Positions 874-42,348 are shown, counted from the stretch's first letter. The stretch is 64,000 bases of DNA from Fidelibacterota bacterium (GCA_018650445.1 JABIFX010000160.1:37052-101051); one strand, 5' to 3'. Numbers and translations: made by a program. Notes: generated from the letters alone by a model not told the origin.

Positions 874-2133
874 ATGGCTTTGCTTGGTGAAATTAGGCTA
901 CCTGGTGACAAATCAATAAGCCATCGAGCCCTCATGTTCACCGCACTGAGTGATGGTCTTAGTCGCCTTGAAAATCTGAATCCAGGGGCCGATGTCGCCA
1001 CAACTCAACGTGCCCTGATCAACTGTGGAATTCATATCGAAGAAAAGCATGGTGTCGTTCATGTCCAGGGCGGTGGACTACATCCATTCAAACAGCCTGA
1101 ACTGGGACTTGATTGTGGAAACTCGGGGACTACTGCGCGCCTGATGATGGGTCTCTTGGCGGCACACCCCATACATGTTCAGGTCACAGGGGATCAGTCT
1201 CTCAGCAAACGACCCATGGACAGAGTTTTTAGACCTCTCCAGCAAATGGGTGCCAACATCTCAGCCAACAAAAGAAAATATTTACCCCTGATGCTGAGCG
1301 GACGTGACTTGTGGGCTCTGGACTACCAGCTACCATATGCCAGCGCCCAGGTCAAATCGGCCATTCTTTTGGCAGGGTTGCATGCAAAGGGACAAACCAC
1401 GGTCAAATCGCCTGCTTTTAGTCGTGATCATACTGAGCAAATGCTTAAGGCAATGGGTGCACGCATCAAGGTCAAGGGGCGTGAAGTGTCAGTACATCAA
1501 CTGACCAAACCACTCAAACCAATTGATCTGGTGATACCGGGTGACTTTTCGGCTGCGGCCTTTTTTATTGCTGCAGCCCTACTCGTTCCAGATTCAGATT
1601 TGATCCTTCGTGGTGTGGGGATAAATCCAACTAGAACAGCCTTTCTTAAAGCGGTCAAAGATATGGGTGGCAAAGTAACCGTCGCCAATAAAGCAAAGCT
1701 CAGCGGTGAAGCTATTGCTGATATACGAATCCGGGCATCCAAGTTAAAAGGTATTCAAATCTTTCCGGAGCAGATTCCAAATCTGATTGATGAATTGCCC
1801 CTCATTGCACTATTGGCTACACAGGCTGAGGGTGAAACTGTGGTAACGGGTGCAGATGAATTGCGTGTGAAAGAATCAGATCGAATCACTGCGATTGTGA
1901 CTAATCTGAGTGCCTGGGGTGCCAAAATATTTGAGCGACCCGATGGATTCCATGTAGAAGGACCCACACCTCTCAAGGGGGGTAAGGTCAAAACCTATAA
2001 AGATCATCGTATTGCCATGACTCTGGGTATCGCAGGATTGATTAGCAAATTACCGGCAAGTCTGGATGACCCGAATTGTGTAGATATTTCATATCCTGGT
2101 TTCTTCGATGAACTTCGGGGTTTGATAAGTTAA
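874..2133 (+). CDS. aroA: 3-phosphoshikimate 1-carboxyvinyltransferase (EPSP synthase), class II-like
   Basis: LPGDKSISHRALMF, LDCGNSGTTARLMMG, KRPMDRVFRPL and VKESDR motifs. Length 419 aa. Sits in the shikimate operon. Confidence 0.95.
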   Translation: MALLGEIRLPGDKSISHRALMFTALSDGLSRLENLNPGADVATTQRALINCGIHIEEKHGVVHVQGGGLHPFKQPELGLDCGNSGTTARLMMGLLAAHPIHVQVTGDQSLSKRPMDRVFRPLQQMGANISANKRKYLPLMLSGRDLWALDYQLPYASAQVKSAILLAGLHAKGQTTVKSPAFSRDHTEQMLKAMGARIKVKGREVSVHQLTKPLKPIDLVIPGDFSAAAFFIAAALLVPDSDLILRGVGINPTRTAFLKAVKDMGGKVTVANKAKLSGEAIADIRIRASKLKGIQIFPEQIPNLIDELPLIALLATQAEGETVVTGADELRVKESDRITAIVTNLSAWGAKIFERPDGFHVEGPTPLKGGKVKTYKDHRIAMTLGIAGLISKLPASLDDPNCVDISYPGFFDELRGLIS

Positions 2134-2177
2134 TTTTTTTGAATAAGCGTTTTGAACGCACGAATCAGGAGATAAAT

Positions 2178-3044
2178 GTGAAATTAGCTGTTATTGGTGA
2201 CCCTCTCAGACAAAGTGTCAGCGATTTTATGCATGGTTGGATATATGAACAACTTGGCCTGGAGGCAGAGTATAAAAAGATCAAGGTTGTCCAGGGAGAT
2301 CTGGAACGCTGGGTAAATCTTCCATCTGCCAGGAAGCTGGATGGATTTAATGTGACCATCCCCCATAAAGAGGATATTATACCCTTCTTGGATAGCGTGA
2401 ATGATCGCACTGCACCAATTGGTGCAGTCAATTGTGTCAGACGCCATGACGGGAAACTCACTGGATACAATACTGACTGGTACGGCTTTGTGAAATCCCT
2501 GGAAGCCGCAGGTGTGGATCTGGCTGGAAAAAAAGTAGTCGTCCTGGGGAGTGGTGGTGCCGCAAGAGCCATCACCTTTGGATTGGCCAGGGTTGGAGCC
2601 GGGAAAACCACTGTGATTGCACGAGATCCCGATAGGGCAAAAACCCTTATTAAGGACATGAGCAATTCTGCTGAAGGCATGAAATTAGCTGGTTGCTCCT
2701 GGGATGAAAGTGCAGTTGAGCCCATTGAAGACGCCTATTGCCTGGTCAATTGTACTCCCATCGGAATGAAGCCAAAACAGAATGAGAGCCCTCTGGATGG
2801 AGATCTTCTGGAATCCATTGATGTGGTAGTTGACACCATTTTCAATCCTTTGAATACACGCTTACTTTCAGAGGCAATTTTTTCAGACTGTCAAACCGTT
2901 TCTGGTTTGGATATGTATCTCTATCAGGCCATGGCCTCAATTGATGTTTGGTTTGGACCACAGGATTGGAACCAGATCAAGATGAATGAGATGCGCGAAG
3001 CTGTTCACAACAAAATTACCGGTTTTAAGCGGAAATTTGAGTGA
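2178..3044 (+). CDS. aroE: shikimate dehydrogenase
   Basis: NVTIPHK, GAVNCV, NTDWYGF and the GSGGAARA Rossmann motif. The ORF track starts at TTG 2139, but GTG 2178 is preceded by AGGAG about 6 nt upstream and gives the usual MKLAVIG N-terminus. Confidence 0.85.
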   Translation: MKLAVIGDPLRQSVSDFMHGWIYEQLGLEAEYKKIKVVQGDLERWVNLPSARKLDGFNVTIPHKEDIIPFLDSVNDRTAPIGAVNCVRRHDGKLTGYNTDWYGFVKSLEAAGVDLAGKKVVVLGSGGAARAITFGLARVGAGKTTVIARDPDRAKTLIKDMSNSAEGMKLAGCSWDESAVEPIEDAYCLVNCTPIGMKPKQNESPLDGDLLESIDVVVDTIFNPLNTRLLSEAIFSDCQTVSGLDMYLYQAMASIDVWFGPQDWNQIKMNEMREAVHNKITGFKRKFE

Positions 3045-3179
3045 TATTAGGCAAGCGCTGATTCTCAATAACTTTGACTTATAGAAGCCCATCATCCTGC
3101 TTGATAAACCAGAGCTGGACCTTGAACTTGTCGAAAGGTACGACGGATTGAACGGAATCGATAGATTAGGATTAATAAA

Positions 3180-4334
3180 ATGTTACAACATCTAAAATTC
3201 TTAACTGCAGGGGAATCACACGGCAAAGGTCTATCAGGAATTCTTGAAGGTTTTCCTGCCGGAGTGCCACTTTCCGAAAGTTTTATCGCAAGAGACTTAG
3301 CTCGTCGGCAAATGGGGCACGGTCGCGGTGGTCGCATGAGTATCGAGAAGGACCATGCTGAAATAACCAGCGGCTTGCGTCATGGGTATACCTTGGGATC
3401 TCCCATAGCACTCTGGATTCAGAATCAGGATTGGGAAAACTGGAAACAGGATAAAATGTCACACGAAGCACCATCGAATCCTGTTCCCGAGGTAACTCTT
3501 CCCCGTCCAGGCCATGCTGATCTGGCTGGAACCCAAAAATTCGGTTTTAGTGATATTCGCAATGTTCTGGAGCGGTCATCTGCACGTGAAACAGCCATGC
3601 GGGTCGCCCTGGGAGCAGTTTGCCGCGCCTTCTTAAATGAATTGGGTGTTGAGATATTCAGCCATGTTTTACAGATAGGTCCTATCAAAACCACTTCAAA
3701 ACCAGTGCAACTACATAAGGATATGAATAAAATCGCAGATGCCTCAGATGTGAGGTGTTTGGATAAGGAAGCCACCAGTGCAATGATTCAGCATATCGAT
3801 GTGACCCGCAAAGAGGGTGATTCGGTGGGCGGTGTTTTTGAAGTGCTAGCAGCGGGACTTCCGCCTGGTCTAGGTTCTTATACTCATTGGGATCGCAAGC
3901 TGGATGCCCGTCTGGCTGCCGCTATGATGTCAATCAATGCTATGAAATCCGTAAGTATTGGAGATGGGCTGGATGTCAGTGAAGCTACTGGATCTCAGGT
4001 TCATGATGAAATAATTAAAGAAAATGACACTATTGGTAGAGCCACAAATCATGCAGGGGGTATAGAAGGTGGTATGTCAAATGGTGAACTGATTCAGGTT
4101 CAAGTCACCATGAAGCCGATCCCAACCCTGGCAAAACCTTTAAGATCAGTGGATATCAAAACCCATGAACCGGGAATCGCCCATAAGGAGAGAACCGATG
4201 CCTGTGCTGTACCAGCTGCTTCCGTAATTGGTGAAGCCATGATGGCTCTGGTTTTGACTGATGCTATCCTTGAAAAGTTTGGTGGAGACTCGTTAGAGCA
4301 GGTCAAAGCACACATCGCCGCCACAGGAGTGTAG
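3180..4334 (+). CDS. aroC: chorismate synthase
   Basis: LTAGESHGKGL, GRGGRMSIE, RPGHADL, SARETAMRVA and GGIEGGMSNG motifs. 384 aa. Confidence 0.95.
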   Translation: MLQHLKFLTAGESHGKGLSGILEGFPAGVPLSESFIARDLARRQMGHGRGGRMSIEKDHAEITSGLRHGYTLGSPIALWIQNQDWENWKQDKMSHEAPSNPVPEVTLPRPGHADLAGTQKFGFSDIRNVLERSSARETAMRVALGAVCRAFLNELGVEIFSHVLQIGPIKTTSKPVQLHKDMNKIADASDVRCLDKEATSAMIQHIDVTRKEGDSVGGVFEVLAAGLPPGLGSYTHWDRKLDARLAAAMMSINAMKSVSIGDGLDVSEATGSQVHDEIIKENDTIGRATNHAGGIEGGMSNGELIQVQVTMKPIPTLAKPLRSVDIKTHEPGIAHKERTDACAVPAASVIGEAMMALVLTDAILEKFGGDSLEQVKAHIAATGV

Positions 4335-4353
4335 AGTGGTCGGAGGGGATTAA

Positions 4354-4878
4354 ATGATGAGCATTAGTAAAGTATACTTGATTGGCTTGATGGGTGCAGG
4401 TAAAAGTACCGTCGGCCGACTTTTGGCTGATGCACTCAGCTGGCAATTGCTGGATATTGATCAAGAAATTGAAAAATTTGCAGGAAATGACATCCCATCC
4501 ATTTTTGAAGCACAGGGGGAGGATGGATTTCGTGACTATGAAGCTCAGGTTCTCATGGAAACAGCTTCACTGAATGATGCTATCATACCTTGTGGTGGAG
4601 GCATTATTACCAGACCCGAAAACGTGGAGTACCTGAAAGATCATCTAACTATCTGGCTGGATGTATCTCCTGAAGAAGCTGCAGCTCGCTTGGAGCATTC
4701 TGATCATCGTCCCCTGTTAAATGAATGCAAGGATACGATTAAAAAATTGCAGGAAATTTTGGATAATCGCCAAGTTGGCTATGCCGAAGCTGCGTCGCTT
4801 CACATAAATACAGGTCAACGAGCTCCAGATATTATCACCCATGAAATACTTGAGAAACTGGAAAGCTACCATGTCTGA
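4354..4878 (+). CDS. aroK: shikimate kinase
   Basis: Walker A LIGLMGAGKSTVGRLLA, DIDQEIE, GGG lid. 174 aa. GGAGG RBS upstream. Confidence 0.9.
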   Translation: MMSISKVYLIGLMGAGKSTVGRLLADALSWQLLDIDQEIEKFAGNDIPSIFEAQGEDGFRDYEAQVLMETASLNDAIIPCGGGIITRPENVEYLKDHLTIWLDVSPEEAAARLEHSDHRPLLNECKDTIKKLQEILDNRQVGYAEAASLHINTGQRAPDIITHEILEKLESYHV

Positions 4879-5986
4879 TTCATCAACCCTTACAATGACC
4901 CACAAGACTGGAGCCTACGAGATTCGTGTGGGGCAGAATCTGCTGGACTCGGTGGCAGGGCTACTCTCGAGTATTGGTGCCTCGGGACCTATAGGAATAA
5001 TTAGCAATGCTACGGTCAATGAACTCTATGGTGGATCAATTCGTGAGGCCCTTAGCCAGGCTGCCTTTGTAACTCGAACGATCTTGATCCCTGAAGGGGA
5101 GGAATATAAAACCCTGGCCTCGGCAGAACAGGTGATGTCCGCTTTGATTGCCCAGGGCATGGAACGCTCTGGAACCATCCTTACCCTGGGAGGTGGTGTG
5201 GTCACTGATCTGGGTGGTTTTGTCGCCAGCATTCTCTATCGTGGGGTCAAATTGGTCCATATCCCAACAACGTTGCTGTCTATGGTAGATGCCGCTGTAG
5301 GGGGTAAGACAGGCGTCAATCATAGTAGTGGTAAAAACCTGATCGGTAGCTTTTATCAACCTGATTTAGTCGTCATGGATGTGAAAACTCTGGAAACCAT
5401 GCAGCCACGTGATCGTATCTCAGGATACGCAGAAATGTTAAAGATGGGTGTCATTCGAGATACGAGCTATCTTGAGTTCCTCGTTGACCATATGGATGAA
5501 TGTCTGGCGGCTGAGTCCACTGATATCCTCATTCAAGCCATAGCCCGAAGTTGCGAGCTAAAAGCTGAAGTGGTTGAAGCAGATGAGAAGGAAGCGGATT
5601 TACGACGCATTCTGAATTTTGGACATACTCTCGGTCATGCTATTGAATCCACGCTTGGATATGGTGTGGTCAGACATGGTGAAGCTGTCATCCTTGGCAT
5701 GTACGGTGCAGGATGGCTTTCCAATCAGGTCGGTGATTTATCGCTAGAAGATTGGGATAAACTGTCGGCTATGCTGAGAAGAATTCCCCTGGAGTTTCCA
5801 CAAAAGTCTTTAAACCCAGAAGCCATTGAACTGGCAACCCGTCTGGATAAAAAGGTAGCGAACTCACAATTGAACTTTGTATTATTACATCACCTGGGAG
5901 AAGCCTATATGCAGACCGGGATTCCTGCGGTAATGATAAAGTTGGCCGTTGATGCCATCAGAACTGCCTGGGAGGGTAGGGAATGA
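4871..5986 (+). CDS. aroB: 3-dehydroquinate synthase
   Basis: GGGVVTDLGGF, GGKTGVN, NFGHTLGHAIE and HGEAV metal/NAD motifs. ATG 4871 overlaps the aroK stop (ATGTCTGA) and is preferred over the listed 4841. Confidence 0.9.
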   Translation: MSDSSTLTMTHKTGAYEIRVGQNLLDSVAGLLSSIGASGPIGIISNATVNELYGGSIREALSQAAFVTRTILIPEGEEYKTLASAEQVMSALIAQGMERSGTILTLGGGVVTDLGGFVASILYRGVKLVHIPTTLLSMVDAAVGGKTGVNHSSGKNLIGSFYQPDLVVMDVKTLETMQPRDRISGYAEMLKMGVIRDTSYLEFLVDHMDECLAAESTDILIQAIARSCELKAEVVEADEKEADLRRILNFGHTLGHAIESTLGYGVVRHGEAVILGMYGAGWLSNQVGDLSLEDWDKLSAMLRRIPLEFPQKSLNPEAIELATRLDKKVANSQLNFVLLHHLGEAYMQTGIPAVMIKLAVDAIRTAWEGRE

Positions 5987-8147: not shown

Positions 8148-9419
8148 ATGAAACAACTCATGTCTTTAATCCTGGTAATCTTTTCCCTGGCTATGACTGC
8201 GTGCAAAGAGCAACACAGTGAAACGGGTGCGAGTATCCAGGCAACCCTTGATCATTTGAAAATTGCGCTGAATGAGCATGATTTTGAGGAAATTGAACCC
8301 CTGATTGCTGTTGACTTTGCATTTAATGGGTATGATGGAGAAATGGGCCGTATGATTATGAGTCAAATTGTGGCTCAATATCCCCAAAAAACCAGCGCTA
8401 TCAATATCACCGATGTGAAACTTGAGGGGTCAAATTATGTGGTTACTGCGGAATTTGTATCCAGGGATGAAACCGTTCTCAAGGAAGTGATTCTAACCTC
8501 AGATTATAAGATCGAACGTGCCCAAATTGTGGAAATCGCCATGGGGGGACATGAGCCTGCCCAGAAGTCGCATACAATTCCCTTTTATAGCAGTCCAGAG
8601 GATAACATTCCATCCAAAATGGTGGCTGATTTTGAATTGGCTGGCCGGTTGATTACTGTTGAAGCAGAGGTAGAAGGAGTTCGGGGAACCTATATTGTAG
8701 ACTCTGGAGCGGTAACCTTTATGCTTAATTCAAGATATTTCCCTGGTTTGGAAGATCGTGCCAAGCCCATGGATCATGGGGCTCAAGGTGTGAATGGCTC
8801 CCTTGAGGGAATTCGTGTTGTTGATGCTAATAATTTCATCTGGCAGGATACAGAACTGGCATCCATTTCAGCCTTACTCTATGATTTATCCCATTTAGAG
8901 GAAAAGACAGGTGTTGAAATCAAAGGCTTGATCGGAGCTGAATTCCTCAAAAGATATGTAGTAGAGTATGATTATTCAAAACAGGAAATAACCTTGTACT
9001 CTAATGCTTCAAATAGCTTTACTCAAGATGAAATGAGCCATGTCGTTGATATAGAAATGTTGGATAATATGCCCGTATTTGGGATTGAAATTGGAAAGAA
9101 AAAACTGAGGGTTGCTCTGGATTGTGGAGCCGAAGAAGCCATGTTATTCAAAAAGTGGGATGAGCCCCTTAGTCCATATTATAAATATCTTGGGACAACT
9201 GGACTTTCTGGAGCTGATAAAGTCGAGTCCATCAATAAACAGGTCAAGCTAGATGCCTATAAAGTCGGCGATGTTACCTATAAGAAGCAGGACTTCATAT
9301 TTGCAGACTTGACCTATAACCACTCTATTGAAATAGATGGATTGCTAGGCTACGAATTCTTGAGTCAACACAAGACTACAGTGGATTATGAGAAGGGTAA
9401 GATTTATATCTCATCATAA
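8148..9419 (+). CDS. lipoprotein with two retropepsin-like aspartic protease domains
   Basis: Lipobox LAMTAC. Two D-S/C-G-A signatures (YIVDSGAVTF and VALDCGAEEA), each followed by a ...GLIG/GLLG...FL flap-like segment. An NTF2-like module lies at the N-terminus. Confidence 0.6.
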   Translation: MKQLMSLILVIFSLAMTACKEQHSETGASIQATLDHLKIALNEHDFEEIEPLIAVDFAFNGYDGEMGRMIMSQIVAQYPQKTSAINITDVKLEGSNYVVTAEFVSRDETVLKEVILTSDYKIERAQIVEIAMGGHEPAQKSHTIPFYSSPEDNIPSKMVADFELAGRLITVEAEVEGVRGTYIVDSGAVTFMLNSRYFPGLEDRAKPMDHGAQGVNGSLEGIRVVDANNFIWQDTELASISALLYDLSHLEEKTGVEIKGLIGAEFLKRYVVEYDYSKQEITLYSNASNSFTQDEMSHVVDIEMLDNMPVFGIEIGKKKLRVALDCGAEEAMLFKKWDEPLSPYYKYLGTTGLSGADKVESINKQVKLDAYKVGDVTYKKQDFIFADLTYNHSIEIDGLLGYEFLSQHKTTVDYEKGKIYISS

Positions 9420-15823: not shown

Positions 15824-15858
15824 AAAAAAAAGACCACCCTCTTGAGGATGGTCTTTTT
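15824..15858 (-). terminator. rho-independent terminator downstream of the YtfJ-like gene
   Basis: AAAAAAAAGACCACCCTCTTGAGGATGGTCTTTTT: stem AAGACCA/TGGTCTT plus inner pairs, with T-runs on both strands. Confidence 0.75.
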
Positions 15859-15882: not shown

Positions 15883-16497
15883 CTATTCAGTTGCCTCAGT
15901 CTCTTCCACGACTTCTTCAGCTTCTTCTACTTCTTCTACTTCTTCTACGACTGGAGGAGGAGGATTTCTCAATAATTCAATTTCAGCATTGATCATAGCG
16001 ATCATTTTTTTGATGTCATTATCAGAAACCTGACCATCAACACTAAAGATAACTTTTCCAGTTGGATCAATCACAACCATGTTATTTGAGTCATCTGCCA
16101 AGCCCCATTTTTCACCGACCATATTGTCATTGTCTCTTACATAGACAGTACTGGGATAGTCTTCCTGTTTTCCAGAAAGAATGAGGTTGATAGCAAAATT
16201 TGGTTTCCATGTTGCGGCCATATTTATCAGGGCAACTGAGCCGTAGACATCCTTTGGATAATCTTCAGCCTTTAGAGCTTCTGTGGCGGCATTATTCGTT
16301 TCACTTTCATCAGGATCAGCATGGACAATCACCCAAACTTTTCCGACGAGCTCACTGCTGCTCCAGGCTGTATCGTCGACTCTACCACCATCATCACCGG
16401 AGAGTTCTAAGAGAGGAACATTCTGACCAACAGGGAGACCTGCAAACAAGCCAACGCTTAACAAAACAAATAAAACACTAAACGACACTTTTTTCAT
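15883..16497 (-). CDS. YtfJ/HI0045-family periplasmic protein with acidic C-terminal tail
   Basis: Signal peptide. Colinear with E. coli YtfJ (GQxVP...W.S..LVGKV.V..H.A...N...EA.K...YP.S...D..G). Ends in PPPPVVEEVEEVEEAEEVVEETEATE. Confidence 0.65.
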   Translation of the reverse strand: MKKVSFSVLFVLLSVGLFAGLPVGQNVPLLELSGDDGGRVDDTAWSSSELVGKVWVIVHADPDESETNNAATEALKAEDYPKDVYGSVALINMAATWKPNFAINLILSGKQEDYPSTVYVRDNDNMVGEKWGLADDSNNMVVIDPTGKVIFSVDGQVSDNDIKKMIAMINAEIELLRNPPPPVVEEVEEVEEAEEVVEETEATE

Positions 16498-16700: not shown

Positions 16701-16997
16701 TTAAGGGAGAACTTCGACACCCTTCCAAAAGGCGATATGGTCTTTGATGGGTTGAGCAGCATCTGATGGGTCGGGGTAATACCAGGCGGCATCCTGATTA
16801 TCCATTCCGTCTACTTCAATATGGTAATAGCTGGCAGTTCCTTTCCAGTGGCAGACGGTGTGGGTTTGACTATCTCTCAGATAGGCTGGGTCTACAGAGC
16901 TGACGGGGAAATAGTGATTGCCCTCGATGACTATGGTATTGTCACTTTCAGCAATAACTTTATCATTCCAAATAGCTTTCATTTGCTGCTCCTTCAC
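16701..16997 (-). CDS. DUF427 domain protein
   Basis: 98 aa. IAESDNTIVIEGNHYFP...CHWKGTASYY...AAWYYPDP...FWKGVEV is the DUF427 pattern. 4-nt overlap with egtD. Confidence 0.75.
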   Translation of the reverse strand: MKEQQMKAIWNDKVIAESDNTIVIEGNHYFPVSSVDPAYLRDSQTHTVCHWKGTASYYHIEVDGMDNQDAAWYYPDPSDAAQPIKDHIAFWKGVEVLP

Positions 16998-18016
16998 AGG
17001 GTGCGCAATTCAAGCGCAGTATTTTGGGGTTTAAAACAATTCAGGCTGAACCAGCCCTCATTATCCAACCATTGCTGTTCAAGAAAAAAGCCAGAGGCTT
17101 CGGCCAAAGCATTAATTTCACTGTGTGAATACTTATATGAATATTCAGTTAATATCTTCTCATCCTTTTTGAATGAGATCCTTACACCGATATTTTTTAT
17201 TTCAACTTCCTGATCGATATCGCTCACCAGATACATTTCAATGCGTCCTTCTTCTACATTGTAAATGGCCTGGTGGTGGAAATTCTTTCGCTCAAATGTA
17301 CCACCCAATTCGTTGTTGAGGCGATCCAGCAGATTCAGATTAAAATCAGCAGTGACACCTTTGGCATCATCATAGGCAGGTTCCAGAATCTCTGGTCCCT
17401 TGCGGAGGTCAATACCCAATAACAAGCTATCCTGAGCCCCAATATTCTTGTGGACTTCTCTTAAAAATTGGGCCGCCTCAACGCGTGTCAAATTCCCAAT
17501 ACTGGAGCCTAACCACATAATGCAACTGGATGTTGTGCTATTTTTTAAGATATACTCCATACCAAATTCGTAGCGGCCAGCTACGGCTTCCAAGTGAAGC
17601 TGCGGATAGCGCTGGTTAAGGTCGTTTACCGTATCAGTCAGGATTTCAGCTGATACATCAATGGGTGAGTATTGTGTAGTTCCAAAGCGTGCCATAGCAG
17701 CTTCCAGCAATATTCTTGTTTTGGTTGAGTTGCCACTTCCTAATTCCACGAGATGGGTGTTCATGGGTAGTTTTGAGATGATTTCTGCTGCGGATCGCTG
17801 AAGAATTTCAGTCTCTTTGCGCGTGAGGTAATATTCTTCCAACTCACAAATATCTTCAAATATCTGGGATCCACGTTCATCATAGAAATAGACGGAAGAT
17901 AAGCGTTTAGGTGTATTGTTTAATCCTTTGAGCACGTCCTTGGCGAAAGCCATGGTAGGATTTTCAATTTGATCTGCAGGCTTGATAATCTGGGGTGAGT
18001 GGCGCGTTTCAGTCAT
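16994..18016 (-). CDS. egtD: L-histidine N-alpha-methyltransferase (hercynine synthase)
   Basis: YFYDERGSQIFEDICELEEYYLTRKETEIL, LVELGSGNSTKTRILL and WLGSSIGN. 340 aa, EgtD family. Confidence 0.9.
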   Translation of the reverse strand: MTETRHSPQIIKPADQIENPTMAFAKDVLKGLNNTPKRLSSVYFYDERGSQIFEDICELEEYYLTRKETEILQRSAAEIISKLPMNTHLVELGSGNSTKTRILLEAAMARFGTTQYSPIDVSAEILTDTVNDLNQRYPQLHLEAVAGRYEFGMEYILKNSTTSSCIMWLGSSIGNLTRVEAAQFLREVHKNIGAQDSLLLGIDLRKGPEILEPAYDDAKGVTADFNLNLLDRLNNELGGTFERKNFHHQAIYNVEEGRIEMYLVSDIDQEVEIKNIGVRISFKKDEKILTEYSYKYSHSEINALAEASGFFLEQQWLDNEGWFSLNCFKPQNTALELRTL

Positions 18017-19524
18017 GAGTTAGATTCCTGTTTCATTTGTAATCCAGGTGAGAGAAAAGTACGTTCAGCAAAATCAAAGCTCCATTGAACGAGAAGGGCT
18101 AGAACAGCAGCCGGGATAGCACCTTCGAGAATGAGACCGGTATCATCCAGCCTGATGCCAGTGAGTATGGGTTGTCCATATCCTCCAGCGCCAATCAAGG
18201 CACCTAAGGTTGCTGTACCGACATTAATAACAGCTGAAGTTTTTATGCCTGCCAGAATCGAACGAGCAGCCAGGGGGAGTTCGATTAATCTAAGTCGGGC
18301 AGAAGCCGGAAGACCCAGGGCGCGGGCTGATTCCTGTACATCAATGGGAAGCCCAGTCAAGCCACTCAAAGTATTTCGTACAATGGGCAGCAGACTGTAT
18401 AGAAATAATGCTACGAGGGCAGGTGGTCCACCGATGCCCAGCAGGGGAATCATAAATACCAGGAGTGCCAAGGAAGGTATTGTCTGGATAATACCCACAA
18501 TACTGAGAATAACCTGACCCAGGGTGGCATTCCGGGCACCCCAAATACCCAGGGGGATAGCCACCAGAATGGCAGCCCCCAGAGACAGGCAGACCAGAAA
18601 TAAATGTTCTGATGTGGTCCTGATCAATCTGTCCAGTCTTGTTGAGATTTCTATCTTAGAGAGCGTGTTAAATTTGATATTCAAGAAACTCTGAGCCACT
18701 TCAGCTTCACTGCGACCCTCCAACTTGACATCAGAATTCATCTTGATCATCTCAGCTTCAGAAATGATACCACCAAACTGTGTAAGATAGGTGTGAATCT
18801 CAGGGATACGATCTATCAGCTCAGTACGATACAGTATTACGGCTCGGTAATCAGGGAAGTATCTCCTATCATCTTCGAGAACACGCAATTGATAATAGGC
18901 GATTTCTGCATCAGTGGAATAAAGATCAATCAGGTCAATGGAGCCGGCCTCTAAGCCCTTGTATGCCAGATCATGATCTAGACCGCGCACTGCCGTCTGG
19001 GGTAGTTTATAATGATCCCTGAGGCTGGGCCACCCATCTTCGCGATCCATAAATTCATTGGTAAACCCAAATCGGAGCTCAGGATATTGGCGTAAATCGC
19101 TGATTTTTTCCAACGAGAACTTTATAGCTGTAGAAGGTGTAATCCCAAGGGCGTAAGTATTATTAAAACCAAGAGGAGCAGTCATGCTCACCCCGTGCCG
19201 AGCAAGTGCCGCCTTAATATCTGCATCTGAAGAAATATCCTCACCTTGAAGAATCTCATATATAATCGTACCGGTATAATCGGGATAGATATCCAACTCT
19301 CCCTGAACCAGTGCTTTCCAGAGCAAACGAGTGCCACCAAGCTGATCCTTATGAGAGGCAGTTAAGCCTTTGTTCTGGAGGTGTTGGGTAATGACCTCGC
19401 TTAATATCACTGACTCGGTAAATTTCTTAGATCCAATCCTGATTTCTGAAGCTGATTCAGCCTGTAGTGAGGCGATGGCCAGAAAGGATAGGCTCAGGCT
19501 TAGATAAAGAATCAGTTTCTTCAT
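18013..19524 (-). CDS. ABC transporter, fused quaternary-amine substrate-binding domain (N-terminal) and permease (C-terminal), OpuBC/OpuCC/EgtU type
   Basis: Signal peptide. SBD motifs DIYPDYTGT and GFNNTYAL. The C-terminal ~210 aa hold 5-6 TM helices with an EAA-like loop (ESARALGLPASARL). Confidence 0.85.
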   Translation of the reverse strand: MKKLILYLSLSLSFLAIASLQAESASEIRIGSKKFTESVILSEVITQHLQNKGLTASHKDQLGGTRLLWKALVQGELDIYPDYTGTIIYEILQGEDISSDADIKAALARHGVSMTAPLGFNNTYALGITPSTAIKFSLEKISDLRQYPELRFGFTNEFMDREDGWPSLRDHYKLPQTAVRGLDHDLAYKGLEAGSIDLIDLYSTDAEIAYYQLRVLEDDRRYFPDYRAVILYRTELIDRIPEIHTYLTQFGGIISEAEMIKMNSDVKLEGRSEAEVAQSFLNIKFNTLSKIEISTRLDRLIRTTSEHLFLVCLSLGAAILVAIPLGIWGARNATLGQVILSIVGIIQTIPSLALLVFMIPLLGIGGPPALVALFLYSLLPIVRNTLSGLTGLPIDVQESARALGLPASARLRLIELPLAARSILAGIKTSAVINVGTATLGALIGAGGYGQPILTGIRLDDTGLILEGAIPAAVLALLVQWSFDFAERTFLSPGLQMKQESNS

Positions 19525-20273
19525 TTGATCTGATCTTCCAGCTGCTGCCAGGGTTTACGCTGTGCATTGATAAATTGGGTAACAAAAGGATCCGCAGGGT
19601 GTGACGAAAGATTTGAAAGGGTATCATATTGAAGTATATATCCATCCTTCATTATCACAATCAAGTTAGCCAGAGAGGCTGCTTCACCCATATCGTGGGT
19701 CACCAGAACGACGGTTTTCCCGAGTTGACTAAAGATGGTCTTCATCTCCTCCTGCAAACTTACTCTATTTAGTGGGTCCAGGGCTCCCAGGGGTTCATCC
19801 AAAAACAAAATCTGGGGATCCAACATGAGGGCGCGCATAAGGGCAACCCGTTGAACCTGGCCCCCGGAAAGTTCCGAGGGGTAGCGTTTTAACAGGTCTG
19901 TAGAAATATGAGTCAAATCACATAATTCAGCAATGCGTTGCTCTGTTTTTTGGGGATCATGCTGTAAAAAATCTGCCATAAGACGCATATTTTGAACAGC
20001 GGTCATGTGAGGGAAAAGACCCCCATCCTGGAGTACAAATCCCACCTGCTGACGCAATTTTTCAACGTTACCCTTGGATAATTTCTCTTGAAAAAGTGAG
20101 ATATTGCCCTTCTCAGGCCACAATAAGCCGACCATGAGCCTCAGCAATGTTGATTTCCCACAGCCGCTGGGACCAATGAGAACAACGGTTTCCCCTTGAG
20201 GTATTTCTATGGAGAGGTCATGAATGACCTCATGACCGTTAAAGCTTTTACTTATATCCTTTAGTTGAATCAT
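19521..20273 (-). CDS. ABC transporter ATP-binding protein (OpuCA/EgtV-like, no CBS tail)
   Basis: Walker A GPSGCGKST, signature LSGGQVQR and Walker B ILFLDEP. 250 aa. ATGA overlap with the permease gene. Confidence 0.9.
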   Translation of the reverse strand: MIQLKDISKSFNGHEVIHDLSIEIPQGETVVLIGPSGCGKSTLLRLMVGLLWPEKGNISLFQEKLSKGNVEKLRQQVGFVLQDGGLFPHMTAVQNMRLMADFLQHDPQKTEQRIAELCDLTHISTDLLKRYPSELSGGQVQRVALMRALMLDPQILFLDEPLGALDPLNRVSLQEEMKTIFSQLGKTVVLVTHDMGEAASLANLIVIMKDGYILQYDTLSNLSSHPADPFVTQFINAQRKPWQQLEDQIK

Positions 20274-20278
20274 GTGAG

Positions 20279-21133
20279 CTAGCGACTAACTCCTGCGATG
20301 CTTTCAGCGTGTTGAATGGCCTTGTCTAGAAATGTTTCCACCATTGATTTTTGCGCTTCGGGTGTATCCTCCTTAACAATTTGAGCCAGAGTTAAGACCA
20401 TACCGGTCCAACCTTCGGTATGCCATTTTCCAAAAGTCAGGGGCAGATCTATAATTTGATCTTTTGCAGGATAGGGCCAGACATTTACATAATAGTAAGG
20501 GGCAGTATAGCTGGTGTCACCAGGCGACATGCCTATGCCAATAGATTTTTCCTCACCAGGAGTGACCAAAATGGCCATGTCAAAATGGTGGGGCCAGGTC
20601 GCTACACTTCCTGCCCTATCATCTTTTTTAGCAATTGCCTCAAGCTGCAGATAGGCATTGGAATAGGCTGAGGATAATTGGTCAAAGGCTGCCTGATCCG
20701 ATGTGTCAAACGGGATTGACCAACGAGTGGGATAGTCAGGTAATTCAAAATGTCTTTTCATGGTGAAGACAGACTTTGGGAGCCCATGGTCTTCCAGAAA
20801 GAATTGTAAATCGGCAGCAACTTGCTTCAGGAGTGTTCCGTTTAATTTCAATTCTAATAATGATTCATGATTATGAAGTACTTGACAGCTAAGATTCTGA
20901 AGCGTTAGACCGATCTGAAATTTGTGGCCAGGTCCAAAGGGTTGACTTAATAACATGCTGGCCGGGGAATCCCATAGCAGAGACGTATGGCTATCATCAG
21001 CCTTATGTTCTACAAAAGATATTCCTGCAGCAGTCAGGAGTTGGACGGCCTGGTGCAGTTGCCCACGTGCTTCAAATAGTCGATCATCTTTGATCTGTAT
21101 CAGTTGTTTCCAGTTGGTATCTATTATGCTCAC
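20279..21133 (-). CDS. conserved hypothetical protein embedded in the ergothioneine operon
   Basis: 284-aa ORF with no signal peptide and no family motif I can name. Sits 5 nt upstream of the ABC ATPase gene and 46 nt downstream of egtB. Confidence 0.5.
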   Translation of the reverse strand: MSIIDTNWKQLIQIKDDRLFEARGQLHQAVQLLTAAGISFVEHKADDSHTSLLWDSPASMLLSQPFGPGHKFQIGLTLQNLSCQVLHNHESLLELKLNGTLLKQVAADLQFFLEDHGLPKSVFTMKRHFELPDYPTRWSIPFDTSDQAAFDQLSSAYSNAYLQLEAIAKKDDRAGSVATWPHHFDMAILVTPGEEKSIGIGMSPGDTSYTAPYYYVNVWPYPAKDQIIDLPLTFGKWHTEGWTGMVLTLAQIVKEDTPEAQKSMVETFLDKAIQHAESIAGVSR

Positions 21134-21179
21134 AGTAATTCCAATATTTGCAAATGAAGGTACATTGATTTTAGGTCAT

Positions 21180-22460
21180 CTACACATCTCGGGCGAGACG
21201 AACTCCCATGAATTGCCAACGTGAATGGGGATAAAAGAAATTCCGGTAGGTGGATCGCAGGTGGTCGCTGCTGCTGACACACGAACCTCCCCGTAAAACC
21301 ATCTGGCTGGACATAAATTTCCCATTGTATTCGCCCACAGCACCACTGGCAGATTTAAATCCATGGTAGGGAGAGTAGGGGCTGCGAGTCCACTCCCAGA
21401 CATCTCCAAACATCTGACTCAATTGTGATCCTGCAGTAGGTTCTGCTGGTGCAGGATGAAAGAGTTGTGTCTGGACGAAGTTGCCCTCAATCTGGAGACT
21501 CTGTGCGGCATGCTCCCACTCAATCTCACTGGGAAGACGCGCTCCACACCAATTTGCGTAGGCATCAGCTTCATAAAAACTGAGGTGAGTGACAGGGCTG
21601 TCAAGATTTAATGGGACAAGTCCTGATAGTGTAAACTCAAACCATTGATTTTCTTGGTGAATCCAATAGAGGGGGGCAATCCAAGATTCTTGATTGATCA
21701 AGGCCCATCCATCCGATAACCAGAGAGCTGCCTGACTGTATCCACCATCTTTAATAAATGATAGATACTCCCGGTTTGTTACCAACCGGCTACCTAATTC
21801 AAAAGGTTGGAGGAGAACATCATGTCGGGGTGTTTCATTATCAAAACTGAACTCGCTACCAGAGAATCCGTGCTGAATCTGTCCACCCTCAAAAGCCGTC
21901 CAACTAAGCTCTTGATAATTATCAGTGATCTTTGGTTGTTCAATCATCACGTAGGCAGGGTAGATCGGATTTTGAAAAAAGACATGCTTGATATCAGTGA
22001 GCATCAATTCCTGGTGCTGTTGTTCATGGTGAAGTCCTAAAACAAAAACGGATTCAAGGCTGGAGATTTTATGCTCATCCAGGGACTCAAAAAGACGGAT
22101 TATTTCATGGTCAACATGGTGACGATATGTAAATACTTCATCAACAGTAGGACGGCTCAAGTGCCCTCTTTCGGGACGGGGAAATTGCTCTCCAACTGCA
22201 TTGTAATATGAATTGAACAGATAATTATAAAGCTCATTGGGGGTCTCATAGCCACTAAGTTCTGGCTTGAGGATGAAGGTCTCAAAAAACCAGGAAGTAT
22301 GGGCAAGGTGCCAGCGTGTTGGGCTCACATCCGGCATGGATTGAACCACAAAATCTTCCTTTCCCAGTGGCTCACAAAGCTGTTCAGTAAATTTTCGAAC
22401 CGCTGTGTATTTTGCAATAAGTTGTGTTCTTAAATCCTGTATTTCCCCTGAATTGTTCAT
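21180..22460 (-). CDS. egtB: hercynine sulfoxide synthase EgtB (DinB-like N-terminal domain plus FGE-sulfatase-like C-terminal domain)
   Basis: SPTRWHLAHTSWFFETF, HHEQQHQELM, ...EWEHAA..., GDVWEWT and LRGGS. 426 aa. Confidence 0.9.
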   Translation of the reverse strand: MNNSGEIQDLRTQLIAKYTAVRKFTEQLCEPLGKEDFVVQSMPDVSPTRWHLAHTSWFFETFILKPELSGYETPNELYNYLFNSYYNAVGEQFPRPERGHLSRPTVDEVFTYRHHVDHEIIRLFESLDEHKISSLESVFVLGLHHEQQHQELMLTDIKHVFFQNPIYPAYVMIEQPKITDNYQELSWTAFEGGQIQHGFSGSEFSFDNETPRHDVLLQPFELGSRLVTNREYLSFIKDGGYSQAALWLSDGWALINQESWIAPLYWIHQENQWFEFTLSGLVPLNLDSPVTHLSFYEADAYANWCGARLPSEIEWEHAAQSLQIEGNFVQTQLFHPAPAEPTAGSQLSQMFGDVWEWTRSPYSPYHGFKSASGAVGEYNGKFMSSQMVLRGGSCVSSSDHLRSTYRNFFYPHSRWQFMGVRLARDV

Positions 22461-22597: not shown

Positions 22598-23134
22598 CTA
22601 GAAACTGACATCCAGGTTCAGATTAACCTTATCTAAAACTTTCATGGGTCCCATCCCAACCAGCGGGAGGTCAAAATCCGTGGGTACAATGAGGAAACTG
22701 CCAGTAGCATTCCATTTTCCTGCTGACTGTTTCAAATCCAACATCAATGTAAAGGGTTTTGTAATTCCATTTACTTGGAGATTTCCAGCCAACGATACAG
22801 CACCATCCTTTAGTTCTGGTAAATTCACATCGGATTTAAAGGTTATGAGAGGATGCTTTTTGCGGTCTAAAACTGACATACGCATATGTGTGTCACGCAT
22901 AGCATTTCCAGTATGAAGATCATTCACAGAGACCTCCACGTTGACTGTCCGATTTCCACTGGTGTCAGCGTCGCTAACTGAAACCGTGAAAATCCGAGCT
23001 TCAACAGGAAAATCATGGGTTCGGGCATGCCCCAAACCTTCAAAGCTACCGTTTGCTTCAGTGATGGTGATATTGGCCCAACTCAACAGTGGGAGAATAG
23101 TGATAGTCATGGCGATCAAATTATTCAATTTCAA
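22598..23134 (-). CDS. YceI-family periplasmic (polyisoprenoid-binding-like) protein
   Basis: Signal peptide. 178 aa. ...HTGNAMRDTHM...L....HP.ITF.S... matches the YceI pattern. Confidence 0.75.
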   Translation of the reverse strand: MKLNNLIAMTITILPLLSWANITITEANGSFEGLGHARTHDFPVEARIFTVSVSDADTSGNRTVNVEVSVNDLHTGNAMRDTHMRMSVLDRKKHPLITFKSDVNLPELKDGAVSLAGNLQVNGITKPFTLMLDLKQSAGKWNATGSFLIVPTDFDLPLVGMGPMKVLDKVNLNLDVSF

Positions 23135-23354
23135 AATTAACTCCTTTCAACGAGTTTTTAATTCTGCTGACAGGGTAACTTTTCTCTGGATACGCTTCTG
23201 TCCTGAAAACGACAAAGCTGATATAAAGCCCGATTTGTTTGACAAGCACACTCACTAATGATATCATGGCGGTATTCCCGCTTGCAGGCCCTAAATTTTC
23301 AGATACATTTTTGCGAGAATCCCAAAATGAATTATTAATGAATAGGGGAAAGTC

Positions 23355-24229
23355 ATGAACAATTTACTTAAGCTATTGATAATAATGCCAATAGCACTGT
23401 TTGTCTTAAGCTGTGAAGAAGAAACACCAGACTATGCGGCTGATATAATCAACACCTATATCCTTGAATCAATAGAATTTATGGGTGAAACCCTGGATTT
23501 TACTGATTTACCACTTGAGGGCGCCATGCTGGTGAAGATCACTCGTGATGAGGCGATTACCTACGAGAACGATGAAGACCACTGTGATGATACTTATAGC
23601 GAAGAATCTGACGAAATTGATGGTGTTACAGAAACAGCCATCCTTTTTGCAGATGGATCGGAGACTGAATATAGCATCATAGGTGGTAAACTCAGATTGG
23701 TTGAGGACGGTGATGTCATCATTCTGGCAGTTTTTATAACGGAACGGTTCCACCTGCATCATGGACGGATCCCTCTCTTTTGACCAATGATACTTACGAA
23801 CCGAATAATGAAACTGCCACAGCTACTTCAATTGCAGCTGGTGGAACCATCCAGAACCATTTTATGGGAGCCTGTGGAGACGAGGATTACTTCATGTTTT
23901 CTGCTACAGCAGGTGTTTCTTACATCATGGAGACCACTTCTCCCCTTGATCAATTCCTGGATCTGACACTCGCTTTATATCAGGGGAATGGTATGCTGGT
24001 GGATTCTGATGATGATGGTGGTACGGATTTCAATCCCAGTCTGTATTGGACCTGCCAGACTTCTGGTGACTACTATTTTGTCATAGAGGGGTTCTGGGAT
24101 GACGATATTGGTAACTATTCAGTATCTGTGATTGAGAGTTCAGCCCTAGTAAAACCGATAGTAGTGCCAGAGATAAAAAGAGCCAGGCCTGAAAAAAAGA
24201 TCAGATTAAGCGAACTCCTTTTTAATTAG
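23355..24229 (+). pseudogene. lipoprotein with C-terminal PPC (pre-peptidase C-terminal) domain, interrupted by a 1-nt frameshift
   Basis: ORFs 23355-23783 and 23780-24229 are together colinear with the intact paralog at 24396-25292. The frame switch maps to the T5 run at 23731-23735. After it, the second frame already reads ...YNGTVPPASMDGSLSLTNDTYEP, against FEYDFPPPAWTDPLFLTNDEYEP in the paralog. Confidence 0.7.
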
Positions 24230-24251
24230 AGCAAGCTCGAATAAATTTTAT

Positions 24252-24287
24252 GAAAGAGGCTGTTCTTTGAGCAGTCTCTTTCTTTTT
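24252..24287 (+). terminator. rho-independent terminator
   Basis: GAAAGAGGCTG-N9-CAGTCTCTTTC: an 11-bp stem with one G-T pair, followed by TTTTTG. Confidence 0.7.
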
Positions 24288-24395
24288 GTGACAGCTATGC
24301 ATTTGAGCCATTGCATATAAAGTTCACAATAGTTATTGCATGTGTTCCTCGGTCAAATAGTTTTTACAAGCTCGCATAATTGAAAGGGATCAGCA

Positions 24396-25292
24396 TTGAA
24401 TCAATGGCTTAACAGGGGATGCTTATTGTTTCTGGGACTCGTCATGGTAGCCTGTGAAGATGCTACCATTGATTATTCATCAGATATTCTAGGTATCTAT
24501 ATTGTTGAAAATACAACCGTTGATGGGATCTATACTGATTATAGCACTTTACCGATTGAAGAAGCCTGGATTATTGATATCACCGCTGACAATTTATTGT
24601 CCTATGTGAATGATGCAAATTTATGTGATTCAACCTTCAGTCTGGACGCCAGGGTCATTGATATGGTAACTGATACATCAATTGTTTTTACAGATAATAC
24701 GTACCTGGATTATAGCAATAATAATGAGCAGCTTACGCTCTATAACGACGACGACGTGATGGTTCTGGCTGGATTTGAATATGATTTTCCTCCCCCAGCA
24801 TGGACAGATCCGCTATTCCTAACGAATGACGAATATGAACCAGACAGCAGCTTGAGTTTGGCCAGCAGAATTTCTGCTGCGGGTGCTTTTCAGACTCACT
24901 ATTCGGCTGTCTGTGATGATGATGATTTTTTTATATTTGATGCTCTGGGGGGTACCGTATATATCATTGAAGCTGAAGCAGCCATAGGGACTGATATTGA
25001 TTTAACATTATCTCTGTATTCTACCGATAGTCTTATAGCCTATAATGATGATCAGGCCTCTACCAATGTTGACCCAAAATTAGTGTGGACCTGTCTGGAC
25101 AGTGGTGACTACTATTTTATAGTAAAAAAGTATTGGGATTATCTAGATCCGGGTAATTCTTTGGATGATGAGAAGGGTGCCTACACTATCAGTGTTGATG
25201 TAACAAAAGGATTGCTGCAGGCATCACCAGAGATAATCAAGCTTCATCGACCGGTTAAAGCGTCTCGTCTTTTCCACAAATTTTTCGACTAG
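24396..25292 (+). CDS. lipoprotein with C-terminal PPC domain (intact paralog)
   Basis: Lipobox LVMVAC. The C-terminal half has YEPD...CDDDDFFIFDA..GTVYIIE...DLTLSLY...DD...W.C..SGDYYFIV, which is PPC-like. TTG start. Confidence 0.65.
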   Translation: MNQWLNRGCLLFLGLVMVACEDATIDYSSDILGIYIVENTTVDGIYTDYSTLPIEEAWIIDITADNLLSYVNDANLCDSTFSLDARVIDMVTDTSIVFTDNTYLDYSNNNEQLTLYNDDDVMVLAGFEYDFPPPAWTDPLFLTNDEYEPDSSLSLASRISAAGAFQTHYSAVCDDDDFFIFDALGGTVYIIEAEAAIGTDIDLTLSLYSTDSLIAYNDDQASTNVDPKLVWTCLDSGDYYFIVKKYWDYLDPGNSLDDEKGAYTISVDVTKGLLQASPEIIKLHRPVKASRLFHKFFD

Positions 25293-41538: not shown

Positions 41539-42348
41539 TTAATTTGGACCAAGCTCGAGACTGCTTTGGTAAGCTCGACGGGCAATATGAGCCCCCCCTA
41601 GAGCACCCACAGTTTGCGGGTTTTCAGGAATATTCAAAGTCAACCCCAACTTCTCCTCCAACAGCACAACCAGACCCCTATTATGAGCAACGCCTCCTGT
41701 CAGGGTCACTTCGCCTTCAATGCCAATACTGGCAACCATACTCCAGATTCGATTCACAATGGAACGTTGTAGACCGTGGACGATATGTTCACGTGGGGTA
41801 TGTTTGGCCAGGAGAGAAATGACTTCGCTCTCAGCAAATACGGTACAGGTACTGCTGATAGGAGCTGACTCTCCCTCGATATTCAAGGGGCTGCTCAATT
41901 CATCCAGGTCTAGTTCCAGACGATTGGCCATGACCTCAAGAAAGCGACCTGTCCCAGCGGCACATTTATCATTCATGGTAAAATCTAGCATACGACCATG
42001 TGAGTCGATTTGGATCACTTTGCTGTCCTGACCACCTATGTCTATCACCGTTCCCGTCTTGGGAAAGAGTTGATGAGCCCCGACCCCATGGCAACTGATC
42101 TCAGTCGTTTTTCCCGTGGCAAAAGCCACTGAAGCACGCCCATAACCCGTAGCAGTGATTGCTGTGATGACCTCCCTTGAGAGATCCGCCAGCTTTATAG
42201 CGGAGTCAAAAGCCACCTCAGCTGCTTCAGACCCATTTACGCCAGTGGGGATTACAGTTTCAGACAGGAGTTTTCCTGAATGGTCAATAATGGATACATC
42301 GGTGCTGAGAGAGCCTACATCCACACCGGCAAAATAGAGATCAGCCAT
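41539..42348 (-). CDS. BcrA/BadF/HgdC-type ATPase (activase of 2-hydroxyacyl-CoA dehydratase-like enzymes)
   Basis: GVDVGSLSTD, IDIGGQDSK and KCAAGTGRFLE. ATG 42348 overlaps the upstream stop (ATGGCTGA) and is preferred over the listed 42423. Confidence 0.85.
   Translation of the reverse strand: MADLYFAGVDVGSLSTDVSIIDHSGKLLSETVIPTGVNGSEAAEVAFDSAIKLADLSREVITAITATGYGRASVAFATGKTTEISCHGVGAHQLFPKTGTVIDIGGQDSKVIQIDSHGRMLDFTMNDKCAAGTGRFLEVMANRLELDLDELSSPLNIEGESAPISSTCTVFAESEVISLLAKHTPREHIVHGLQRSIVNRIWSMVASIGIEGEVTLTGGVAHNRGLVVLLEEKLGLTLNIPENPQTVGALGGAHIARRAYQSSLELGPN

Follow-up and report, generated by a model that had tools for sequence, protein, structure and literature searches.

Within a 64,000-nucleotide (nt) stretch of a Fidelibacterota genome (GCA_018650445.1, JABIFX010000160.1:37052-101051; hereafter the window, with positions counted from its first nucleotide), six minus-strand open reading frames (ORFs) at 16701-22460 make up an expressed, translationally coupled operon that joins a type II EgtB and an EgtD, both enzymes of ergothioneine (ET) synthesis, to a complete type I ATP-binding cassette (ABC) importer. 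Chance falls far short of explaining the pairing of ergothioneine (egt) genes with this transporter: a relative with a 71%-identical transporter retains it, and EgtD lies beside members of the transporter family in 23 of 80 loci. With roughly even confidence, we favor a salvage importer for hercynine and/or ET over a co-regulated importer of small betaines.

An expressed operon with a complete importer

Read in the direction of transcription, the block comprises egtB, a gene for a 284-aa protein, an ABC ATPase gene, a fused substrate-binding domain (SBD)-permease gene, egtD and a DUF427 gene, separated by a 46-nt gap and a 5-nt gap and then joined by three 4-nt overlaps. ORFs, strand, gaps and overlaps all stand where the original prediction had placed them, and the motifs it picked out, DIYPDYTGT and GFNNTYAL, are found in the translated fusion. 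Each of the six genes is covered in part by marine metatranscriptome contigs identical to the window, at low depth and with DNA carry-over possible; they include contigs that cross the gap between egtB and the 284-aa gene (21036-21207) and the overlap of the ATPase and fusion genes (19401-19551). Within the block, RNA contigs reach their greatest depth on a YtfJ-family gene downstream (15883..16497, minus strand; PF09695), after which comes the strongest minus-strand terminator-like hairpin (15827-15858, 14-bp stem), and the transcription unit possibly ends with ytfJ. A sigma-70 promoter scan of the block returned background-level scores only.

Both enzyme identities hold, each above its curated TIGRFAM cut-off. 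EgtB (21180..22460, minus strand; 426 aa, DinB_2 and FGE-sulfatase domains) scores 573 bits against TIGR03440 (cut-off 360), and its best solved match, aligned end to end, is the Chloracidobacterium thermophilum enzyme CthEgtB (6qki/6o6l/8qf6; E 2.5e-148), vs. E 1e-38 for the type I mycobacterial EgtB (4x8b); SenA, OvsA, OvoA and EgtB-IV score below type I EgtB, and the NSYY tyrosine pair is retained. By its similarity to CthEgtB, we assign the protein as a type II, cysteine-type hercynine sulfoxide synthase, in support of the cysteine-using route that had been proposed for it. EgtD (16994..18016, minus strand; 340 aa), the predicted histidine N-alpha-trimethyltransferase (hercynine synthase), scores 363 bits against TIGR03438 (cut-off 291) and 367 bits against Methyltransf_33, and aligns over aa 21-326 with solved EgtD (7scf/4pim; E 4e-57 to 5e-54). 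No EgtE-like class-V pyridoxal phosphate (PLP) enzyme, EgtA-like GCS2 or gene resembling the metallopterin-dependent ergothioneine synthase (MES) was detected within the 64-kb window, as the original prediction had reported for egtA and egtE. The sole PLP lyase found in the window is a Beta_elim_lyase protein of the tryptophanase / tyrosine phenol-lyase family (57662-59044, minus strand; 460 aa, 269.5 bits); as the only candidate C-S beta-lyase for hercynyl-cysteine sulfoxide in these 64 kb, ∼35 kb off the operon, its assignment to this step is speculative.

The ATPase (19521..20273, minus strand; 250 aa, ABC_tran 127 bits) carries Walker A, LSGGQ and Walker B motifs and consists of a nucleotide-binding domain only: profiles for ProV, PhnT and PotA (325-378 positions) match it over their first ∼235 positions, and it has no C-terminal regulatory or CBS domain. 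The 503-aa fusion (18013..19524, minus strand) begins with a signal peptide at aa 1-23 (19456..19524; hydrophobic segment aa 2-23, MKKLILYLSLSLSFLAIASLQAE), continues with an OpuAC-type SBD at aa 27-281 (18682..19446), delimited by Pfam and by alignments to the binding domains discussed below, and ends in a five-helix permease. The MetI-like transmembrane domain (TMD) of the latter, at aa ∼303-487 (18064..18618), was recognized from hydropathy, from matches to MetI and OpuA TMDs and to Pfam BPD_transp_1 (aa 322-485), and from an EAA motif, ESARALG, at aa 398. An SBD that precedes the TMD reverses the order of EgtU, in which the TMD is N-terminal and the SBD C-terminal (PMC12922746), and bears out the original prediction on this point. 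Together, the SBD, the EAA-bearing BPD_transp_1 TMD and the ATPase with Walker A/B and LSGGQ make up the predicted architecture of a type I ABC importer that depends on a binding protein.

That architecture (signal peptide, extracytoplasmic SBD, EAA motif, MetI-like TMD) makes export very unlikely, and no exporter is known to be built in this way. A transporter that releases the ergothioneine made by the operon would suit the observation that some producers secrete ET through an exporter that is not known (PMC12689799); we nevertheless consider this reading highly improbable.

Linkage to ergothioneine genes across phyla

The relative with the 71%-identical transporter keeps the whole block, in the order YceI-(SDR)-EgtB-DUF5996-like-ATPase-fusion-EgtD-DUF427-YtfJ. 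Beyond close relatives, a search of a one-genome-per-species collection returned at least 597 matches to the fusion at 53-64% identity, spread over many phyla, and 80 loci were retrieved. In 23 of these species-level loci, from at least ten phyla, no more than a few kb separate EgtD from the transporter; by chance, one given gene would be expected within ±10 kb at ∼0.5% of loci for a genome of ∼4 Mb. Linked lineages are Dadabacteria, Planctomycetota (Scalindua, Phycisphaerae, Planctomycetales), Thermodesulfobacteriota, Binatia, Myxococcota, Acidobacteriota, Bacteroidota, Latescibacterota, and Alpha-, Gamma- and "delta"-proteobacteria, soil and freshwater lineages among them. Gene order varies: ATPase-fusion-EgtB-EgtD, EgtB-EgtD-(DUF427)-x-ATPase-fusion, EgtD-ATPase-fusion, and divergent arrangements all occur. 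The producer with a transporter, which the original prediction considered unusual, is instead an instance of a widespread conserved module; the possibility it raised, that the egtBD loci of relatives never carry the transporter, was looked at, and relatives do carry it.

The enzyme for sulfur insertion varies as well (loci are denoted by L numbers). Some linked loci encode a close type II EgtB (44-58% identity), and others distant DinB_2 plus FGE-sulfatase enzymes with 26-28% identity to the window EgtB, beside EgtD and the transporter (L012, L013:9978-11288, L067:6064-7383, L073:5971-7227). On a 5.5-Mb contig, L089:914-6781 (minus strand) reads EgtB-EgtD-GCS2 (EgtA-like glutamate-cysteine ligase)-ATPase-SBD-permease, which shows the transporter linked to a predicted gamma-glutamylcysteine (type I-style) route too. 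The partner found in Scalindua, in a delta-proteobacterium and on metagenome contigs has Molybdopterin, Molydop_binding and Aminotran_5 domains (1106-1135 aa in full-length copies), the architecture of MES (PMC9516567). These MES-type proteins (L004:10665-14072, L010:13112-16478, L058:4333-7653, L091:1280-4672, L094:1870-5184) come right behind EgtD in the gene order of Scalindua and of other anaerobes, and the transporter family adjoins four of the five (L004, L010, L058, L094). Since EgtB, the EgtB-like enzymes, the EgtA-containing set and MES all act on hercynine, what the linked loci share is hercynine/ET metabolism rather than any single chemistry. All-against-all clustering of neighboring proteins found EgtD, EgtB, MES, DUF427 and DUF5996 as the only recurrent neighbors; at unlinked loci, the same clustering detected no ET-catabolic or other recurrent neighbors.

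Synteny in the relative and the 23 linked loci led us to reject chance or a mobile element as the source of the arrangement. A chance or recent, functionally unlinked insertion of the transporter pair into egtBD is the least probable of all the explanations we considered: several independent gene orders recur, the 4-nt overlaps at the transporter's coding boundaries give translational coupling, and RNA contigs cross the junctions. The GC content of the block is unremarkable and gives no argument for or against insertion. Linked members of the family are modestly clustered and interspersed with unlinked orthologs; in Pseudoxanthomonas, for example, a linked (L079, P. wuyuanensis CGMCC 1.10978) and an unlinked (L071) member are 81% identical. 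Among environmental egtD loci, ∼9 of 80 carry the transporter, or two of ∼17 when each flank is required to reach 3 kb or more.

Two further protein families accompany the transporter. The 284-aa protein (20279..21133, minus strand; GTG start, no signal peptide) matches Pfam DUF5996 (PF19459) at 15.2 bits, below the 25-bit gathering score, while homologs reach 24.5 (L001), 39.9 (L056) and 168.7 bits (L057), and a profile built from the protein's own family finds the bona fide DUF5996 protein of L057 at 79.6 bits. We therefore place it as a probable divergent member of DUF5996, its own score being below the cut-off; where the original prediction had listed an unknown, a family that recurs with the transporter can now be named. 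All 937 homologs are annotated "hypothetical." Invariant DDSHT, WPHHFD and PGD motifs in the family suggest an active or metal-binding site. A confident AlphaFold2 (AF2) model (predicted local distance difference test score 94, predicted template modeling score 0.91) found no Foldseek match in the PDB at E ≤ 0.001, the best being partial and Atg10-/chaperone-like alpha/beta with a query TM score <0.3, and a sequence search of the PDB likewise gave no match. Genes of this family stand beside the ATPase and SBD-permease genes at L057:4148-4993, L056:4506-5564, L090:7001-7819, L089:7001-7870 and L046:6198-7082; they adjoin the transporter in the presence of egt genes in the window, L001, L046, L057 and L089, and in their absence at L056 and L090, and in the Bacteroidota cluster L057 the bona fide member heads the order DUF5996-EgtB-EgtD-ATPase-fusion. 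Together with these contexts, the invariant motifs hint that DUF5996 may be an enzyme acting on the transported compound.

The DUF427 protein that ends the block (16701..16997, minus strand; 98 aa, GTG start; PF04248 116 bits, 3djm E 1.9e-6) likewise recurs in egt-transporter clusters of several phyla, with both EgtB-type (aerobic) and MES-type (anaerobic) partners: at L019:7803-8354, L034:1860-2354, L058:3659-4144 and 8744-9127 (two copies), L082 ∼8864, L151:8980-9285, and in L001. In Dadabacteria and Thermodesulfobacteriota, a 254-aa protein with DUF6596 and TPR domains lies between EgtD/DUF427 and the ATPase (L008, L019:8453-9217, L034).

The components of the system come from known superfamilies, and we found no account of the linkage between egt genes and transporter in the searchable literature. 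A search on transporters within native egt clusters, on ET of Marinimicrobia and on the salvage of hercynine found nothing relevant within its incomplete coverage, and the paper on MES does not mention a neighboring transporter (PMC9516567).

Pocket residues and the likely ligand

Compared with solved structures, the SBD is closest to BilEB of Listeria monocytogenes (LmBilEB; 4z7e, E 1.8e-47) and EgtUC of Streptococcus pneumoniae (SpEgtUC; 7txk and mutants, E ∼1e-44), so that by sequence similarity its nearest solved relatives are two proven ET binders. Lower similarity was found to 8dp6 (E 1e-34), which we take to be HpEgtU of Helicobacter pylori, to ProX of Archaeoglobus fulgidus (AfProX; E 1e-32) and to OpuCC/OpuBC (E 1e-22 to 1e-27). 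The original prediction had called the transporter OpuC-like, a label that these values do not support, OpuCC/OpuBC being far more distant than the EgtU/BilEB domains (1e-44 to 1e-47). We rejected an OpuC/OpuB-type assignment also because the SBD is fused and the ATPase is limited to its nucleotide-binding domain.

Ligand contacts described for EgtU (PMC9732360; PMC12922746) were carried over to the window by a numbering-cross-checked alignment, and their conservation was counted in 85 family members; direct alignment to AfProX covers its N-terminal 67 residues, and its other residue states are those given in PMC9732360. Ten contacts of SpEgtUC are kept, namely K33 (SpEgtUC K242), T65 (T275), T86 (T296), N122 (N339), Y124 (Y341), E157 (E375), R161 (R379), D163 (D381), Y202 (Y419) and Y226 (Y443). 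At the sequence level, the window thus has the trimethylammonium cage (Y83/Y124/Y202/Y226 plus N122) and the carboxylate clamp (K33/T86/R161) of an EgtU-type SBD, together with E157/D163; cage, clamp and E157/D163 are at least 96% conserved in the family, with N122 alternating with D. From the combination of cage and clamp, a carboxylate-bearing betaine would follow as ligand.

Which betaine is less readily decided, and several observations weigh against a histidine betaine. The invariant G244 of EgtU, which leaves space for a water chain about the thioimidazole (PMC9732360; PMC12922746), is replaced by F35 in the window and by F in 100% of the family. The F293/Y337 switch of EgtU is absent, its positions being Y83 and F120 as in AfProX (PMC9732360). 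Of the two residues that contact the thione through CH---S hydrogen bonds, I243 and T274 (PMC9732360; PMC12922746), the first corresponds to K in the window and is free to vary in the family (K/S/A/N/T/L/Q/D/P/G), and the second to G64, a change (T274G) that is silent in SpEgtUC (PMC12922746). The SpEgtUC substitutions G244F, F293Y and I243P/A each cut ET affinity 10- to 1000-fold (PMC9732360; PMC12922746). At all comparable positions the pocket is instead that of AfProX (K-x-F, GGT, YxxT, the four-Tyr cage, Lys/Thr/Arg carboxylate contacts, and F at the SpEgtUC G244 and Y337 positions), and the AfProX N-lobe segments IGSKPFNEQ, LGGT and YVEYTGT align with IGSKKFTES, LGGT and YPDYTGT here. An N-terminal fragment of the SBD ranks OsmF and AfProX over EgtUC, and E157, R161, K33 and T86 are common to AfProX and do not discriminate between ligands. 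To these points is added the distribution of the family, ∼70% of whose loci have no egt gene nearby. Taken by itself, the predicted pocket chemistry argues for a small alpha-carboxylate betaine, with which histidine betaines remain compatible.

Two observations on EgtU proteins soften this picture. HpEgtU belongs to a sub-cluster that lacks the SpEgtU determinants, yet it transports ET efficiently, with a Ka of ∼5e5 M-1 (PMC9732360; PMC12922746). In the window family, H184 (in LDHDLAY) is near-invariant and sits at the position of SpEgtUC P401 and HpEgtU I451, which lies beside the thione sulfur of ET (PMC12922746); with F35 and F120, it is one of three family-specific residues. As a sequence signature, the family shows S-K-x-F, Y-P-[DE]-Y-T-G-T, G-F-N-x-T-Y and L-D-H-D. 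A pocket signature separating EgtD-linked from unlinked members was sought and rejected, the pocket being the same in both groups. Full membership in EgtU was likewise rejected, with four defining features missing (G244, the F293/Y337 switch, the thione contacts and the fusion order). The original description of the transporter as EgtUV-type is therefore best read as resemblance rather than membership: the EgtU/BilEB domains are its closest solved relatives and cage and clamp are kept, whereas the specificity determinants are replaced and the domain order is reversed.

The pocket could be taken at face value. The transporter would then be an AfProX-type importer for glycine betaine or proline betaine, recruited to the egt genes for stress co-regulation or for methyl sparing or supply, with no part in hercynine or ET transport. 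AfProX identity at the comparable ligand contacts, the ranking of the N-terminal lobe, the absence of the EgtU G244 and switch residues, and the many loci apart from egt genes all fit this explanation, as does the marine habitat, in which glycine betaine and proline betaine are available. It does not account for the neighborhood: no known reason ties glycine-betaine uptake to ET genes, and EgtD, EgtB and MES recur as neighbors in at least ten phyla, those from soil and freshwater included. Osmoregulated ATPases of the OpuA/ProV type carry C-terminal CBS domains, unlike the ATPase here; the SBD is overall more similar to ET binders than to AfProX; and the family-specific H184 stands where, in EgtU, a residue faces the side chain of the ligand. 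On balance, we regard small-betaine import, the chief rival of salvage, as somewhat unlikely.

Other onium compounds form a broader class of candidates, since aromatic-cage SBDs of the OpuC/ProX type often accept sulfonium and other onium ligands. Dimethylsulfoniopropionate (DMSP), as a source of reduced sulfur or methyl groups, a carnitine-like compound, or an oxidised ET derivative processed by DUF5996/DUF427 might be imported, and DUF5996-like genes that adjoin the transporter at loci with no egt genes (L056, L090) would suit an enzyme acting on the imported compound. The conserved K33/T86/R161 clamp argues for an alpha-carboxylate betaine against such ligands, and the family is well represented in lineages of soil, a habitat with little DMSP; we consider these ligands improbable.

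Weighing the specific synteny and the higher overall similarity to ET binders against the AfProX-like pocket, we favor, at about even odds, a histidine betaine, hercynine and/or ET, as the ligand of a salvage importer. According to this proposal, EgtD would trimethylate histidine to hercynine, the type II EgtB would couple hercynine to cysteine using O2, and the C-S lyase step would be encoded outside the operon. Exported by its signal peptide, the SBD would stay tethered to the N-terminus of the five-helix permease, capture a carboxylate-bearing betaine outside the cell through its cage and clamp, and deliver it inward, with the minimal ATPase powering uptake; the system would thereby salvage leaked ET. 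Hercynine, which is a marker of ET oxidation (PMC12922746), is attractive as a ligand because EgtB and MES both use it as substrate, because ET oxidation yields it, and because thione contacts would then be unneeded. Being desulfurised ET, and itself costing three S-adenosylmethionine (SAM) to make, it might be salvaged for re-sulfurisation by EgtB, a step that MES would perform in other lineages.

A more far-reaching form of the salvage proposal can be put forward tentatively, as something we lean slightly against. The SBD-N/permease-C proteins may constitute a second, structurally distinct family of histidine-betaine (hercynine and/or ET) transporters, marked by an AfProX-like cage with F35/H184, and may belong to a portable "ergothioneine module" that joins EgtD and the importer to DUF427, DUF5996 and an enzyme inserting sulfur by one of three chemistries, and through which producers would recycle ET, oxidised or leaked, in the form of hercynine; either or both of DUF5996 and DUF427 could then be missing enzymes of the ET pathway or of its recycling.

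Bacterial ET transport has so far been known only from non-producers (EgtU/EgtUV), and for producers the question is how they handle the loss, export and turnover of a molecule that costs three SAM and one cysteine. An egt-linked pump across phyla suggests that producers also take ET or hercynine back, and its presence in both aerobic (EgtB) and anaerobic (MES) clusters predicts such salvage as a general part of ET physiology. The SBD is a defined, easily expressed protein for probing this prediction; if it binds hercynine, it would offer a scaffold for hercynine biosensors and a target for obtaining better ET fermentation strains. DUF5996 and DUF427 are flagged as candidates for ET-related functions, and the published EgtU "specificity determinants" appear insufficient on their own for annotating ET transporters.

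Genomic surroundings and known counterparts

The closest named homolog is from Candidatus Marinimicrobia, and the sequencing runs that contain the locus are seawater metagenomes. The genes flanking the block, ytfJ and upstream a YceI-family gene (22598..23134, minus strand; PF04264), are kept only in close relatives, at 79% identity for ytfJ in L001-L003 and 71% (L001-L002) or 69% (L003) for the YceI gene. Farther upstream, on the opposite strand, are paralogous acidic secreted or lipoprotein-like ORFs (23355-25292, plus strand; 142, 149 and 298 aa) that share repeated motifs such as "...DGDYYF..."; RNA contigs of ∼93% identity map at 23329-23500. Shikimate-pathway genes (EPSP synthase, chorismate synthase, 3-dehydroquinate synthase) occupy the left of the window (874-5986, plus strand), and a pair of genes for the 2-hydroxyglutaryl-CoA-dehydratase D-component (HGD-D) lies at 42341-44760 (minus strand). 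In L001, the egt block of the relative likewise has HGD-D and BcrAD_BadFG genes upstream.

Among known systems, the transporter resembles the ET-specific ABC importers EgtU/EgtUV/BilE (S. pneumoniae SPD_1642-1643, L. monocytogenes BilEB, H. pylori EgtUV) in having an OpuAC-fold SBD fused to the permease, in its two-gene layout of ATPase and fusion, and in keeping the K242/T296/R379 clamp, E375/D381, T275 and N339, as well as the aromatic cage at three of its four positions. It differs from EgtU in its N-terminal SBD with a signal peptide, in the near-invariant His at P401, in G244 to F, F293 to Y and Y337 to F, and in the variable I243 position. The window family, moreover, is found in ET producers, inside biosynthetic clusters, whereas EgtU-type importers were described in non-producers (PMC9732360).

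With A. fulgidus ProX (1sw1/1sw2), it has in common the four-Tyr cage, the near-identical N-lobe segments IGSKxF, LGGT and YxEYTGT, and F at the SpEgtUC G244 and Y337 positions (PMC9732360). AfProX, unlike the permease-fused SBD described here, is a free binding protein, overall similarity is at the E 1e-32 level given above, and a link to ET genes has not been reported for it. OpuF of Bacillus and OpuC/OpuB of B. subtilis belong to the same OpuAC superfamily, and OpuF is also an SBD-TMD fusion, although one in which the TMD precedes the SBD and which groups with EgtU (PMC9732360). OpuCC/OpuBC are much more distant from the window SBD than EgtU and BilEB.

A parallel of another kind is offered by TeaABC, for ectoine, and GgtABCD, for glucosylglycerol, through which producers re-import their own leaked solute by binding-protein-dependent uptake linked to or co-regulated with its biosynthesis. 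We found no counterpart of this kind for ET or hercynine in the searchable literature. Unlike the transporter in the egt operon, TeaABC and GgtABCD belong to the TRAP and CUT1 families, respectively, and carry other solutes.

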